Shown: positions 13,274 through 17,063 of the stretch, one piece after another
Numbering within the stretch: position 1 is the first letter of the stretch
Layout of the letters: each line of letters starts with the position of its first letter
Source: Candidatus Bathyarchaeia archaeon
GTDB lineage: Archaea > Thermoproteota > Bathyarchaeia > Bathyarchaeales > Bathycorpusculaceae
DNA: 64,000 bases
Assembly (NCBI GenBank): GCA_038883795.1
Contig: JAVZLK010000003.1
Location: forward strand, 32,001-96,000
Direction of reading: 5' to 3'
Notes under the pieces: model-generated
What the model saw: only the letters and a program-made list of their open reading frames with translations
What the model was told of the DNA's origin: nothing
Databases searched by the model: none
Program-made: the position numbers and the translations under genes

Positions 13274-14203
13274 TTAGCCTTTTTCTTTAATGATGGCTTC
13301 CCATATTCCGAAGCCGCCTACAGTTTCTGGGCGTTCTACCGGGTTATACCATCTTTTCTTTGTCCCAATTTTCGCCCGCATCTTCCACCCAAAAGATTTC
13401 GGCTCCTTCTCTATAATCTCTAATAAATTGTCTATTTTTTGGATTATCTCTTCTCGGTCTTCCTTTTTGATTTGTTTTGGGTCTATGTTGGCTTCGGAAC
13501 CAAATTTTTCGATTTCTGAAAGGAATATTTTGATTTTCTTGAGGTTTGATGTAGCTGTATACCAGAGTCCCCAGTCTTGAGCTAAAAGTTTTGCAATATA
13601 TAATGCGTCTATGCTTTCCTTTTCGCCTTTTTCTTTTATAGCGTGCGCTTTTAGCAGAAGTAAACAGTCTTTTAGGTCTTTTACGCTGAAGGCTTCCCAA
13701 ATCTGCAACTTCTCCAATAGCATGTCCGTCACGGTTATTGTGGGATAATCGAGTTCCAGTCTTCCCCTAAAATCAATGGGATGATTTGCCACCAACAACT
13801 TGTCAAAGAAAACATCCACGTAAAACCAGCCCTTCGGATGATAATATATCTGCCTTCCAGACGCCGCCGTGGAAAGCGTTATTTTCCTTTTAACATAGCC
13901 AATTTTGTCAAAGAAATCTTTCATTTTATCCCTATAACTGCCATAAGAGACAAAATCAATATCGCTATATTCTTGCCCCTCAATAACTCCGGTGCCAATC
14001 CTACCCAATTTCTGCGCAAAATCCCTATATTCTTGACAGTGAACTGCTATGCCCAACCCACCCAAAATCCTCAAAATTAACCCCTCCTGTCGGGTTTTCT
14101 CAACGATCTCTTGGGATTCACGCAAGAAAACCTCTGTGGGAACAATCCCCCTCCATTCTTCTGGCAGTTCCCGCTTAATTTCCTTTTTCAAAAGCCAAGC
14201 CAT
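13274..14203 (-). CDS. Putative nucleotidyltransferase-fold protein
   Basis: RILGGLGIAVH...YSDIDFV...VDVFFD resembles the hG[GS]..DhD..hD NTase motif; LLEKLQI...KDLKD. Confidence 0.6.
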   Translation of the reverse strand: MAWLLKKEIKRELPEEWRGIVPTEVFLRESQEIVEKTRQEGLILRILGGLGIAVHCQEYRDFAQKLGRIGTGVIEGQEYSDIDFVSYGSYRDKMKDFFDKIGYVKRKITLSTAASGRQIYYHPKGWFYVDVFFDKLLVANHPIDFRGRLELDYPTITVTDMLLEKLQIWEAFSVKDLKDCLLLLKAHAIKEKGEKESIDALYIAKLLAQDWGLWYTATSNLKKIKIFLSEIEKFGSEANIDPKQIKKEDREEIIQKIDNLLEIIEKEPKSFGWKMRAKIGTKKRWYNPVERPETVGGFGIWEAIIKEKG

Positions 14204-14289: not shown

Positions 14290-14460
14290 GGGGCCGTAGT
14301 CTAGGAAGGTATGACGACGGGCTCCAGAATAGCCTAAAACGGGTTTGCGGACTGCACCATGCGGAATGAAGAAATTCTGGAGCGGTCATAGAGAAACCCG
14401 TAGGAACAGTCAAGCGCTGTTTCCGGGGAAAGGTCGTCGGTTCAAATCCGGCCGGCCCCA
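14290..14460 (+). tRNA. tRNA-Trp(CCA) with two introns (14328-14395 at 37/38; 14402-14430 at about 43/44)
   Basis: Acceptor GGGGCCG/CGGCCCC; anticodon stem ACGGG/CCCGT with loop CTCCAGA; T arm GTCGG-TTCAAAT-CCGGC; a canonical cloverleaf forms only after both inserts are removed. Confidence 0.93.
14328..14395 (+). ncRNA. C/D-box-like guide RNA nested in tRNA-Trp intron 1
   Basis: ACGGGTTT is complementary to AAACCCGT and is followed by D'-like CGGA; C'-like ATGAAGA; TTCTGGAGC is complementary to GCTCCAGAA. Confidence 0.75.
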
Positions 14461-14590
14461 CATTTTTAAGCAATTTCAAAGCAACGTTTAAGCGGCGGCT
14501 TCGCAAAAACAGAGCAAAAAACTTGCCTTTTTAGATTAACTACTTAGCATTAGAAATTAGATAACAGGTTAGCCGTTTAAATTTTACAAA
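14446..14590 (+). repeat. att core (tRNA 3' end) plus left arm, copy 1
   Basis: Ungapped direct repeat of 15886-16030 at offset 1440; first ~87 bp differ at only 2 positions. Confidence 0.92.
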
Positions 14591-14617
14591 CAGCCCCCAT
14601 TTGTTAGCTGGCTACTA

Positions 14618-15016
14618 TCACCAAATACGTTTGACGCCCATCTTATCAAAAGCTGAATCAGTTGATATCACATCTGCATTGTACATTTTCGCAGCTGCGG
14701 CTATTAAAACATCAAATAGTCCTCCATGTGCCCTTCTATTTGCTGCCATATGCTCCGCTTCCGCTATAATAGAAGCTTCTGTGGGTATCAGCTTCTGTTT
14801 AGGAATTATTAACGCGATATTTCTAAAAATTCTCTCCCTCTGGGATGGTGGAAATTTACGTTTTCTTAGGACCAGATTGCATTCGTGCAGAGTTAAACAT
14901 AAGACAAAAATGTCATTAGCAGTACGGACCGAATAAAGATGTTGAACCGCTTTATTAAATAATGGATGCATTGGGTCAAGGGATGCTATTAAAACAACAG
15001 TATCAAGAATCTTCAA
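14618..15016 (-). CDS. vapC: PIN-domain ribonuclease (VapC-like toxin)
   Basis: ILDTVVLIA, TLHEC, FDVLIAAAA, VISTDSAFD: acidic PIN tetrad. Confidence 0.9.
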   Translation of the reverse strand: MKILDTVVLIASLDPMHPLFNKAVQHLYSVRTANDIFVLCLTLHECNLVLRKRKFPPSQRERIFRNIALIIPKQKLIPTEASIIAEAEHMAANRRAHGGLFDVLIAAAAKMYNADVISTDSAFDKMGVKRIW

Positions 15017-15287
15017 GATTATCTTCCTTGCCGAATATTAAAGATAAGTATTCCTCAGCTTCATGATCTTCTTCTTTCCAATCCTTTAGCCGACCTTTCA
15101 CAATGGAATGCGTGTCAAGAATCGCCAATAAGAATAATTTATCGGGTAACCTTGAAAGAAGTTTTATCATTGCCTTGTTAATCGATGCGTAGGATTCAGC
15201 AGTGCTTTTCACACTGATTTCTAGCAGAGAATTTTCTAAGCCGCGAACGCGTTCAAAGGGAGCTGGAAGTTTTTCAACGATCCACAT
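15003..15287 (-). CDS. Small protein overlapping the vapC start; putative VapB-like antitoxin
   Basis: Position directly upstream of the PIN gene; acidic tail WKEEDHEAEEYL resembles archaeal VapB C-termini. Confidence 0.55.
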   Translation of the reverse strand: MWIVEKLPAPFERVRGLENSLLEISVKSTAESYASINKAMIKLLSRLPDKLFLLAILDTHSIVKGRLKDWKEEDHEAEEYLSLIFGKEDNLEDS

Positions 15288-15693
15288 CGCCCTTTCTTTC
15301 TCCTTTTTGCTCTGTCATTTCCTGCATTTTCTTAAGGTCCTCTGCAAGAGATTTTAAGTTTTCGCCTAACTCTATTTTTTCCTCCGCAGAAATATCCATA
15401 ATCTTGTTAATTTTGGGTAAATAAGTATTCAATTTCATTAGTACCTGAATGAAGAAACCTAAAATCTCCGGAGGAGTTTCTTGCGAAATTTTGCCTAAAA
15501 GTTCCATAGAGTATTTCATAGCCTTTGTGGACGTTAAAAAATCATAGGCGGCTCGCTGATCCCTTTGAATCTCACCTATCTTTCTTGCAAAATCTCCATA
15601 AGCTTCCAATAAGTTAGTTATCACTTGGAAGATGCTACGGAAATCAATTTGTGAGAGTAATTTTTCTAATTCCTCCCTTTCACTTTCAGTCAT
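15274..15693 (-). CDS. Hypothetical alpha-helical protein (cassette 1 cargo)
   Basis: ORF with GGAGG SD before ATG (MTESER); overlaps the next gene. Confidence 0.65.
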   Translation of the reverse strand: MTESEREELEKLLSQIDFRSIFQVITNLLEAYGDFARKIGEIQRDQRAAYDFLTSTKAMKYSMELLGKISQETPPEILGFFIQVLMKLNTYLPKINKIMDISAEEKIELGENLKSLAEDLKKMQEMTEQKGERKGDVDR

Positions 15694-15856
15694 GATAATT
15701 TCCTCCAAACTAAATTTGTTAAAACACCTTTTTTATGTTTTGTATTCTAAATTCATTTTGTAAAACCCCGCAACTATATTAAGTATTTGCCTTTCTAAAA
15801 GTATTGTTAGTTTAATAAAATCGAGGTTTTAATTGATTTTGGCATAAATTCAACAG

Positions 15857-16030
15857 TTGTAAATTTTAAACGTAGGTTTTCATCTATCCGGCCGGCCCCA
15901 CATTTTTAAGCAATTTCAAAACAACGTTTAAGCAGCGGCTTCGCAAAAACAGAGCAAAAAACTTGCCTTTTTCAAGTTGGCATCCAATAGGCGAAACTAA
16001 GAAATAGTTTGGTCGTTTGAATTTTACAAA
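15857..16030 (+). repeat. Cassette junction: right arm, att core and left arm copy 2 (attP-like)
   Basis: TTGTAAATTTTAAACGTAGGTTTTCATCT + ATCCGGCCGGCCCCA + repeat of 14461-14590. Confidence 0.9.
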
Positions 16031-16034
16031 AAGG

Positions 16035-16598
16035 TTAGGCTGGATATCTCTTTTCTTCAATGATGTTTCCTGCGACAGTTATCAAGATGTTGTTTCCGTT
16101 TATGGATACTACGCTATGTTTTCTTTCCATGTTGTAGAATCGCCAAAACTTTTCTGGAATTTTCAGTAATATTTTGTTCTCAGCTTTTTGTATTGGAATT
16201 TTTTCCAGAAAACAAGAGATTTCCTTCCATTCTGGCATTTCGCTGCCAGAAATTCCTATCGTTGAACTGTCTAATGCGTAAACGTAAGCGTATTCATTCC
16301 AAGCAGGGTTGGCTGCTTCTAGTAGTTCGGCTGATACTTCTATTACGTCTTTAGGTTTTTTTTCCTCCTTTGGATAGACAAGGTTTACTCGTCGGCCGTT
16401 CCTTTCGAGAACTTTAATTACAATTTTCCCTTCGTTCAAAAGCCTCCTTATTGAACCATCAACGCGGCCAGTCTTCCACTTCAGCTTTTTCCCCAACTCG
16501 TATTGAGAAAGCCCTGGAAACTGCTTTATAGTTTTCAGTAGGATTTCGTCTGATTCTTCGCCTCTTCGGTTCTTTTTCATCTCCGTTATTTCAATCAT
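16035..16598 (-). CDS. Winged-helix DNA-binding protein with a possible C-terminal AbrB-like domain
   Basis: ILLKTIKQFPGLSQYELGKKLKWKTGRVDGSIRRLLNEGKI (wHTH); LLKIPEKFWRFYNM (AbrB-like). Confidence 0.75.
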   Translation of the reverse strand: MIEITEMKKNRRGEESDEILLKTIKQFPGLSQYELGKKLKWKTGRVDGSIRRLLNEGKIVIKVLERNGRRVNLVYPKEEKKPKDVIEVSAELLEAANPAWNEYAYVYALDSSTIGISGSEMPEWKEISCFLEKIPIQKAENKILLKIPEKFWRFYNMERKHSVVSINGNNILITVAGNIIEEKRYPA

Positions 16599-16792
16599 AA
16601 TTTACTCACAGTCTCTTTCTGTCTCTCACTCTTTATGTTGTTGTTGGGATATTTAAATTTTTGGAATATTCCAAAAAGCTATACCATTAAGCACAAATAT
16701 CATAAGCCTTGCTAAATAGTATCTATGTTCCGATTCCAGCCACGAAAACGATGCTACCTCGGTCCAATAAAGCTTGATTCCCAACCAATCAG

Positions 16793-17008
16793 ATGGATAA
16801 GGATCATAGAAGCTTCGCAAGCAGAGAATGGATTGAAGGCCAAGTAAGATATGGCGAATGGATAAGCGACCACGGCAAGCCAAACCACTTCCAGATATAC
16901 ACAATAGTTTATGAAGGGACAAAGCCTATAACAGTCTTAATTAAGATAAAATTGCAACCCCAACAAGTTCTTGTTTATCATGCGCATGTTGTGCGAAAGA
17001 GAAAATAG
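16793..17008 (+). CDS. Small basic hypothetical protein, possibly the 3' part of a frameshifted gene starting at 16725
   Basis: 71-aa ORF that fills the cassette and stops just before the right arm; beta-rich C-terminus VLVYHAH. Confidence 0.5.
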   Translation: MDKDHRSFASREWIEGQVRYGEWISDHGKPNHFQIYTIVYEGTKPITVLIKIKLQPQQVLVYHAHVVRKRK

Positions 17009-17020
17009 GTTATCTTAAGA

Positions 17021-17063
17021 TTGTAAGATTTAAACGTAAGTTTTCATCTATCCGGCCCCACCA
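17021..17063 (+). repeat. Right arm copy 2 plus distal att core (displaced tRNA 3' end with CCA)
   Basis: TTGTAAGATTTAAACGTAAGTTTTCATCTATCCGG-CCCCA-CCA matches 15857-15900 with 3 substitutions and a CCGG deletion. Confidence 0.88.

Follow-up and report, generated by a model that had tools for sequence, protein, structure and literature searches.

We analyzed a stretch of 64,000 nucleotides from a Candidatus Bathyarchaeia archaeon (family Bathycorpusculaceae; assembly GCA_038883795.1, contig JAVZLK010000003.1, positions 32,001 to 96,000 of the forward strand), referred to here as the window, in which two small gene units stand head to tail directly behind a tRNA-Trp gene. Both units are bounded by the same pair of arms and carry unrelated cargo, and the same arms recur behind tRNA genes in other genomes of the family. 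We consider it fairly probable that these units are non-autonomous, att-flanked integrative cassettes that are moved in trans by a tyrosine recombinase encoded elsewhere. A preliminary description of the window, made from its letters, had proposed a cassette family of this kind; that interpretation is partly supported, being largely borne out as a matter of anatomy and evolutionary behavior, and the mechanism is one that we infer.

The tRNA gene, arms and core copies of the array are arranged as follows:
14290..14460, plus strand: tRNA-Trp(CCA) gene, the integration target (attL side; Rfam RF00005, 39 bits, E = 1e-5)
14452..14461, plus strand: core copy 1 (CCGGCCCCAC), at the tRNA 3' end, predicted attL crossover region
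14461..14589, plus strand: left arm of unit 1 (nhmmer profile positions 1-128, E = 2e-33)
15857..15885, plus strand: right arm of unit 1 (TTGTAAATTTTAAACGTAGGTTTTCATCT), starting with the inverted copy of a 16-nt repeat
15886..15901, plus strand: core at the junction of units 1 and 2, atypical in being longer by 4 nt and in matching the tRNA end exactly
15901..16029, plus strand: left arm of unit 2 (nhmmer profile positions 1-128, E = 8e-36)
17021..17049, plus strand: right arm of unit 2
17050..17063, plus strand: attR, a canonical element-type core (AT followed by CCGGCCCCAC) running into CCA

Unit 1 is 1440 bp long, as first described, and unit 2 measures 1164 bp, not the 1160 bp given before. 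The left arms of the two units are 98% identical over 87 nt and 81% identical over ~148 nt, and the right arms are 92% identical over 37 nt. Among the differences between the left arms is a G at 14481 in unit 1 against an A at 15921 in unit 2. The common arms previously noticed around a PIN gene set in one unit and a winged helix-turn-helix (wHTH) set in the other measure 128 nt (left) and 29 nt (right). A feature absent from that description is a 16-nt inverted repeat, CGTTTAAATTTTACAA, which closes the left arm (positions 14574-14589 in unit 1) and whose inverted copy opens the right arm; the window contains four copies of it, where 0.2 would be expected. CATTTTT opens the left arm, which further contains two AAGCAA repeats 11 bp apart, a hairpin and T-run near position 72, and a variable middle. 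The AAGCAA repeats lie just to the right of the core and are kept in most of the left arms that were aligned. When joined, the right arm, core and left arm form one attP-like module of ~170 bp that is bounded by the 16-nt inverted repeats. Both these repeats and the AAGCAA repeats are likely to be protein-binding sites; that the inverted repeat might also be a transcription factor B recognition element (BRE)/TATA-like element facing outwards from the cargo is a guess.

The inverted repeats sit 113 nt inside the left end of the unit and 13 nt inside its right end, while the unit ends beside the core (CATTTTTAAGC... and ...GTTTTCATCTAT) are not inverted copies of each other. A miniature inverted-repeat transposable element, other DNA transposon or casposon was rejected on these grounds. 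A structured RNA in the left arm was likewise rejected, since its alignment gave no conserved structure (RNAalifold -1.05) and an Rfam scan of the window returned no family besides tRNA and 5S.

The tRNA-Trp gene itself is easily overlooked. Its anticodon loop, with the sequence CUCCAGA, is interrupted by an insertion of 72 nt, and ~30 nt are inserted ahead of the T arm as well. Because of these two insertions, ARAGORN with default settings is blind to the gene and calls no tRNA anywhere in the window. With introns permitted, the program recognizes the homologous gene as tRNA-Trp(CCA) in 11 of the 27 oriented loci that were scanned; the copy in the window is mis-parsed as Pro(AGG).

The 3' end of this tRNA, ATCCGGCCGGCCCCA, is present at 14446 and 15886, and a shorter form, ATCCGGCCCCA, at 17050, as had been reported. 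The 10-mer that all three have in common (CCGGCCCCAC) is far above chance in the window (three copies against 0.06 expected, a count to which none of 100 shuffles rose). The copy at 17050 had been taken for one with a CCGG deletion. An alignment in register sets ...ATCCGG-CCGGCCCCAC-CA of the tRNA against ...ATCTAT-CCGGCCCCAC-AT of the element junction; the core common to both is 10 nt long and therefore no deletion need be assumed. Comparison of 27 right-arm ends from the window and its relatives agrees with this assignment, with an exact core at the same short spacing after 14 of them, a core with one or two mismatches at seven, a Tyr-type core at one and none recognizable at four. The form that is 4 nt longer is found at the end of unit 1 in the window alone. 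The supposedly deleted third core is thus the normal element-borne form and the middle copy in the window the odd one. That middle copy reflects variation of this strain, conversion by the tRNA copy or a path switch during assembly; conversion would fit the 98% identity of the first 87 nt of both units.

A site without any insertion is available for comparison in the same genus. In G003 the tRNA-Trp site is bare and reads ...GGCCCCACCATTTG, from which we conclude that the CCA following the last core in the window, and running into the downstream flank, is the tRNA gene's own encoded CCA. In G004 a unit with MazE and PIN genes starts exactly at the tRNA end and is followed by the same downstream flank as the bare site of G003; at this position a single wHTH unit is found in G002 and two units in the window. 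Relatives therefore do not carry the same two units with fixed cargo: G003, G004, G002 and G001 all differ. Uniformity of this kind had been named in the preliminary description as an observation that would tell against it. Behind tRNA-Trp in G001 (locus L019) there is a different, ~770-bp insert with one gene, placed before the conserved downstream gene; it opens with CATTTTT as the left arm does, has no further similarity to the arm and may be a diverged unit.

In an initial search of 61 relatives, five other genomes had the left arm behind tRNA-Trp, and G029 had an arm-bearing copy behind a second tRNA; 24 genomes from other families of the order gave no match beyond the tRNA. Using the natural junction at 15840-16040 as the query, we then traced the arms across the family: they are present in 26 of 332 genomes, distributed over 14 of the 70 genera. 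They are absent from all 120 genomes of the largest genus. With ~6 kb taken on each side of the arms, a profile search of 26 loci identified 29 left arms. In 22 genomes, 25 units with an arm at either end were mapped, with lengths from 0.13 to 2.4 kb. Tandem arrays are present in four genomes, namely that of the window, G307 (with three left arms), G309 and G291, and the tandem junctions of the latter three consist of right arm, core and left arm, in that order.

The two units in the window carry the following genes:
14618..15016, minus strand: PIN-domain protein, 132 aa, a putative toxin (PF01850, E = 3.4e-10, 41 bits)
15003..15287, minus strand: 94-aa open reading frame (ORF) overlapping the start of the PIN gene, without a family match
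15274..15708, minus strand: 144-aa ORF of unknown function, with no match above cut-off
16035..16598, minus strand: 187-aa protein, with a winged helix at the N terminus and a C-terminal part that is conserved and rich in beta structure
16725..17008, plus strand: small ORF, 94 aa in relatives, split in the window

The 94-aa ORF of unit 1 may be the antitoxin to the PIN protein, to judge by gene order; this PIN gene set is found at no other locus among the arm-bearing loci mapped. The wHTH assignment of the 187-aa protein is weak in Pfam (HTH_24/MarR, E = 0.009) and agrees with the predicted fold (AF2 model, pLDDT 81), for which matches in the PDB are confined to the wHTH. The protein is widespread, with 287 related protein clusters, and its distant homologs (41-72% identity) adjoin neither tRNAs nor arms. 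We rejected the idea that it might be a hidden recombinase, because the matches to solved structures cover the wHTH only and these homologs lie away from tRNAs and arms; it is cargo. The small ORF of unit 2 is interrupted by a 1-nt frameshift near 16800 that leaves pieces of 40 and 71 aa, and most metagenome contigs have an extra G after 16800, so that the window copy is either a pseudogene or an assembly error. At one further locus (L106), a homolog of the wHTH protein (76% identical) lies ~190 nt behind tRNA-Pro(CGG), oriented as it is in the units but between unrelated flanks, and may represent a second arm family.

Across the family, the arms bound at least eight types of cargo including the two in the window, mainly toxin-antitoxin and defense-type genes, together with one empty unit. 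In addition to the PIN set of unit 1, the following were distinguished:
wHTH-186 and a 94-aa ORF: eight family genomes, plus locus L101
PBECR2-like toxin and a DUF2283 protein: nine genomes (two truncated), plus two metagenome contigs
MazE and PIN
HicA/HicB, a PLD-like protein and a 152-aa ORF
wHTH-PLD protein
HepT-like 378-aa protein and a 147-aa ORF
549-aa protein with a weak restriction endonuclease-like start
chimeric units (G276, G288): the left of one type and the right of another
empty unit (G292): arms fused exactly at CGTTTAAACG

Arms that never flanked other genes had been named as a second observation that would speak against a cassette family; several other cargo types do lie between them, in keeping with the proposal of interchangeable cargo. 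The type II toxin-antitoxin families that exceed their cut-offs among the cargo are PIN, MazE, DUF2283 (51.8 bits) and HicA, while the PBECR2-like match (26.6 bits against a cut-off of 27.1) and the HicB-like match (19.3 against 27) fall below theirs. Units contain one to four genes on either strand. Similarity between units with different cargo ends exactly at the 16-nt repeats, and subtypes of the variable middle of the left arm reassort with cargo in both directions (the same cargo with different subtypes, and the same subtype with different cargo). In G292, which holds the empty unit, there are two tRNA-Trp loci, on C45 (L075) and C13 (L080), of which one is occupied by a wHTH unit and the other by the empty, arm-only unit; they may reflect a mixture of strains. 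The C45 unit and its flank are nearly identical to those of G235, which belongs to another genus.

The anchoring on tRNA-Trp that had been described for the window holds there, and is not a property of the family as a whole, since units follow tRNA-Trp, -Tyr, -Met and a Pro-like tRNA. The DUF2283 unit occurs at tRNA-Trp and, in G029, at tRNA-Tyr (as called by ARAGORN); in G249 the same Tyr-type tRNA 3' end precedes the HicAB unit, at a locus where ARAGORN calls no tRNA. The unit of G281 follows tRNA-Met(CAT), and in G023 a left-arm-like remnant lies behind a Pro(GGG)-like tRNA. The wHTH unit occurs at tRNA-Trp and, in L101, at the Pro-like tRNA, which ARAGORN parses as Ala(GGC) with an intron and whose loop CTTGGGC we read as UGG. 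L101 is a 3.8-kb contig with a complete wHTH unit, both arms and four tRNA genes; its record gives it as part of an Actinomycetota metagenome-assembled genome (MAG), and it is probably mis-binned.

Where the cores of target and element differ, the target base stays at attL and the element base at attR. In G281, for example, CCGGGCCCAC is found at attL and CCGGCCCCAC at attR, and the units of G276 and G288, whose cargo is related to that of G281, are located at tRNA-Trp and have a Met-type core at attR. This pattern places the crossover in, or just to the right of, ...CCCAC, and shows that a unit carries its previous core along. The units also differ from their surroundings in their degree of conservation: the wHTH cargo is 96, 92 and 90% identical in G354, G306 and G235, against 74, 76 and 78% for the flanking genes, and within the same genus (G002) the values are 91% against 85-88%. 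Overall, identity of this cargo type ranges from 87 to 96% between genomes in which that of the flanking genes reaches only 74-78%. The excess of cargo identity over flank identity points to horizontal spread of the wHTH unit.

In the mechanism that we propose, a cassette would comprise the 128-nt left arm, the cargo, the 29-nt right arm and the 10-nt core, and in its joined form the right arm, core and left arm would make up an attP of ~170 bp; a circular intermediate is presumed. Entry into the tRNA 3' end would proceed through site-specific recombination in the final core bases (...CCCAC). The tRNA would stay intact, with the unit supplying a new T-run behind it and the tRNA's own CCA and downstream flank being displaced to a position behind the unit. 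Repeated insertion would then lead to head-to-tail arrays, in which later deletion could fuse or truncate units. The CATTTTT of the left arm and the hairpin and T-run near position 72 would probably serve as the new tRNA terminator and as insulation from cargo transcribed towards the tRNA, and toxin-antitoxin or defense cargo would also stabilize the array. The recombinase would be encoded outside the unit; most likely it acts in trans, is most likely of the tyrosine type, and is supplied by an unsampled element or by the host.

The absence of a recombinase from the units and the window, as originally described, is upheld for the whole 139-kb contig of the window, which has no match to a tyrosine recombinase (PF00589, PF16795), serine recombinase or IS110 transposase. 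The genome as a whole has 26 PF00589 and five PF16795 matches, many of them adjoining tRNAs and none at tRNA-Trp. IS110-type genes lie on C32 and C8, and arm-like sequence occurs nowhere else in the genome; Y1 transposases (PF01797) fell outside the search. No integron integrase (IntI) exceeded its cut-off (TIGR02249 has 24 matches in the genome, the best at 61.5 bits against 265). A partitioned integrase gene of the SSV type was considered as a reading of the arms and rejected: by reading of the sequences, no frame crosses the att module except one from a start codon at the core edge, and that frame, otherwise open, is closed by a stop in some right-arm variants.

When 30 integrases of the genome were compared by tblastn with the arm loci, the matches outside the oriented loci were the genome's own C33 integrase and an integrase beside the left-arm-like remnant of G023. 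Within the 26 oriented loci, the sole match was a 28-aa C-terminal remnant inside the array of G307. It belongs to a family of tRNA-adjacent integrases ending in ...GFEYV...FRKRK, of which there are about ten copies in the window's genome (G000). A search with the remnant and its downstream sequence gave matches in 192 of the 332 genomes, including 74 of the 120 in the arm-free genus, with the integrase tail alone covered. Since this family is common in the arm-free genus, it is not specifically tied to the arms, and we rejected the FRKRK-tail integrases as the helper, the G307 remnant being their only link to the arms. Among arm-bearing genomes, no integrase group common to five of them was obvious in the 30 of 38 matches that were inspected; G036 has four integrase matches only.

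Several additional observations concern these recombinases themselves. Most of the FRKRK-tail genes (on C63, C41, C35, C59, C4, C19, C5 and C45) lie 20-100 nt from a tRNA gene, the tRNAs being Pro, Asn, Leu/Thr, Ser and Cys, and on C63 two of them converge on a single tRNA-Pro from both sides. The C41 and C63 integrases are 99-100% identical in protein sequence to those of G285 (L157, L162) and G310 (L154), which belong to other genera; this reflects either very recent transfer or contigs binned into several MAGs. C38 and C23 (at their starts) and C31 (at its end) have near-identical loci in which tRNA-Glu is followed directly by an SSV-type integrase (PF16795) at the contig end, and it would seem that assemblies break at integrated elements or that several strains are present.

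A number of results weigh against mobile cassettes served by an external recombinase. No recombinase is encoded in any unit or within ~6 kb of the arms in the 26 oriented loci. The preliminary description had suggested looking for a tyrosine integrase next to the arms, and the 28-aa remnant was the sole trace of one there. No full-length FRKRK-tail integrase linked to the arms was found in the 332 genomes, and in viral contigs the right-arm pattern had no matches and the left-arm pattern one chance match. An integrase-bearing parent or partner element with these arms was absent from the 332 genomes, the viral contigs and the two metagenome matches, a search limited by the fact that mobile elements are often missing from MAGs. 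The 2.18-Mb, 87% complete assembly of the window genome contains no other copy of the arms or core, and the contigs of four metagenome runs contain neither an empty site nor an unambiguous circle junction for this strain; a 1403-nt contig that leads from unit 1 into a left arm fits a tandem array or a circle alike, and ends before the discriminating single-nucleotide polymorphism. Several units are decayed, with G002 and G004 lacking the attR core, G036 and G029 carrying truncated toxin genes and the window a frameshifted small ORF, and many copies may therefore be fossils.

Taken to its full extent, that last point becomes an explanation of its own, which we regard as unlikely: the units would all be immobile, decayed stumps of larger integrase-bearing elements (cis-mobilizable elements, CIMEs, in the strict sense), their arms shared by common descent and their variety generated by internal deletion and by homologous exchange between arrays. 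Chimeric or fused units do exist (G276, G288 and the composite unit 1 of G307), truncation or frameshift affects some genes, a number of attR cores have degenerated (the four unrecognizable ones and the seven with one or two mismatches), an integrase C-terminal remnant lies within one array (G307), and the partner integrase was not found. Random decay, however, would not leave at least eight unrelated cargo types bounded at the same 16-nt repeats, nor is it in keeping with the same unit type occupying different tRNAs, with unit identity of 96% against 74% for the flanks, or with the 14 of 27 attR cores that are exact; a large parent element with these arms is also missing from the 332 genomes.

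The empty unit of G292 bears on a different possibility, in which recombination operates at two levels. The 170-bp module would then be a resident platform, and cargo would be swapped in and out at the palindrome CGTTTAAACG, which a filled unit splits into two inverted repeats; such a system would be a closer functional analog of an integron cassette or of a TTTAAA-duplicating transposon. The arms of the G292 unit are fused exactly at this palindrome, filled units have the form CG-TTTAAA-TTTTACAA...cargo...TTGTAAAA-TTTAAA-CG, similar to a 6-bp duplication with 8-nt terminal inverted repeats, and the two-way reassortment of left-arm subtypes and cargo would follow naturally. There is, however, one empty unit only, which a 6-bp microhomology deletion explains as well, and homologous exchange in the conserved arms can yield the same reassortment. 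The empty tRNA site of G003 lacks the module, so the whole arm-cargo-arm unit inserts, and no transposase is associated with the units. We consider this explanation quite unlikely, and return to trans-mobilized cassettes as the reading that we prefer.

Part of the stretch is present in thirteen public sequencing runs, which belong to six studies; those ranking highest are labeled as hot-springs metagenomes, and none is recorded as RNA. The read evidence consists of the assembled contigs (Logan) of four runs, which drop rare variants. Contigs of runs X1 and X2 lack the 4 nt at 15888 that distinguish the middle core (depth 6.2/6.2 in X1 and 50.2/50.2 in X2). In X2, the depth of unit 1 is 15.2, against 13.9 for the upstream flank and ~4 for the downstream flank. 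Summed depth is far higher for the wHTH unit and for the tRNA and proximal left arm than for unit 1, and many community members therefore carry them. The 1403-nt X2 contig runs from 14503 through unit 1, the right arm and a short core into 24 nt of left arm; what comes after unit 1 is thus a left arm, and not the chromosomal CCA flank. Loose contig ends at 16030 and 17021 have further cargo abutting the arms that is unseen in the genomes; contig joints from 16029 to 17020 and from 15104 to 17021, with unknown letters between, may hold other cargo. The matches of metagenome contigs to the arm patterns are two short DUF2283-type units only.

These contigs are also relevant to whether the tandem in the window might be an artefact, produced when two strains with a single unit each were joined through their common 87-nt repeat. 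That repeat exceeds typical k-mers, and the junction core in the window is the unique, 4-nt longer form identical to the tRNA end, as would arise from an assembler path switch; the X1 and X2 contigs without these 4 nt, and the greater depth of unit 1 (15.2) relative to the downstream flank (~4) in X2, point the same way. The 1403-nt contig nevertheless leads from unit 1 into a left arm, so that unit 1 is either followed by another unit or closed on itself, and independent tandem junctions exist in G307, G309 and G291. We think a false join very unlikely, and the cassette family would stand even if the tandem in the window were false.

On the other side of the array, between the 5S rRNA and tRNA-Trp genes, a 309-aa ORF (13274-14203, minus strand) has no Pfam match; its relatives show 71-85% DNA identity, and it looks nucleotidyltransferase-like by eye only.

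We compared the units with previously described systems. The available text of a study of CIMEs in Streptococcus describes these as attL/attR-flanked, without integrase or transfer genes and arranged in tandem at a tRNA 3' end, and as decay products of integrative and conjugative or integrative and mobilizable elements, each tied to a known parent (PMC5704250). The units resemble them in each of these structural respects, with a core at both ends, no integration or transfer genes (by tblastn with integrases and Pfam annotation of the cargo), tandem placement at a tRNA 3' end and a presumed dependence on the recombinase of another element. They differ in forming a family of 0.7-2.4 kb units with a precisely bounded ~170-bp module and at least eight unrelated cargo sets, in using at least four tRNAs, in their archaeal hosts, and in that no parent element or integrase was found. 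By anatomy, the units are thus closest to CIMEs yet exceed that description, and would belong to neither CIMEs nor integrons.

The comparison with integrons, which had been drawn earlier in calling the array 'integron-style', is sustained as an analogy only. The attC sites of integrons have the core motifs RYYYAAC and GTTRRRY. As in integrons, small units lacking a recombinase are lined up head to tail, with a repeat between them that ends in inverted repeats, and their cargo is rich in toxin-antitoxin and defense genes. The defining features that were tested fail: there is no IntI beside the array, which is anchored on a tRNA end and not on attI; the module of ~170 bp, bounded by TTGTAAAATTTAAACG and CGTTTAAATTTTACAA, is not attC-like when compared by eye with the motifs above; and units hold one to four genes in either orientation and not single promoterless ORFs in one orientation. 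In archaeal integrons, toxin-antitoxin systems make up 10.5% of annotated archaeal cassette proteins, and neither 'Bathyarchae' nor 'tRNA' occurs in the main text of that study (PMC9668308).

Tycheposons of Prochlorococcus, according to the available text of the preprint, were found via their integrases (910 of 937 carry a tyrosine recombinase) and extend from kilobases to more than 10 kb, often with replication genes (bioRxiv 10.1101/2020.12.28.424599). As far as that text describes them, they share with the units their cargo elements at tRNA 3' ends, partial tRNA copies in between, tandem insertions and degenerate remnants that build islands; the units here are without integrase and replication genes. 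Archaeal elements of the SSV type target tRNA 3' ends, leave direct repeats at both junctions and partition their integrase gene upon insertion ('gene capture'). The units likewise have a tRNA-end direct repeat at both junctions and leave the tRNA intact, but, unlike autonomous elements of the SSV or pNOB8 type, they have no integrase of their own, whole or partitioned, and no integrase fragments at their ends, and their core is 10 nt and not tens of nt. IMEX (integrative mobile elements exploiting Xer) are integrase-less elements that borrow the host XerCD at dif and form tandem arrays. They are similar in being integrase-less, site-specific and tandemly arrayed by way of a recombinase encoded elsewhere, and differ in their target, which here is a tRNA end and not dif. 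We found no description of such units in Bathyarchaeia in the literature searched, supplementary element lists of virus and provirus papers aside.

As a tentative possibility, somewhat beyond what we would assert, the family might be an archaeal counterpart of the integron built from different parts: a portable module of ~170 bp would file small gene sets behind tRNA genes, the recombinase would reside elsewhere, possibly in the host, the tRNA target would be reset by the core picked up at the last site, and the whole would maintain a pool of toxin-antitoxin and defense cassettes in hot springs.

Little is known about gene exchange in Bathyarchaeia, and the arms and 10-nt core constitute a vehicle recognizable in sequence that moves toxin-antitoxin and defense genes between genera, with tRNA 3' ends as the filing sites. 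For the annotation of MAGs, the loci matter because assemblies break at them and because the intron-bearing tRNAs in front of them escape standard tools. Mobilization in trans of integrase-less archaeal cassettes becomes testable with a 170-bp substrate and, if the recombinase were found, the system could possibly provide a compact site-specific insertion module for archaea that lack genetic tools.

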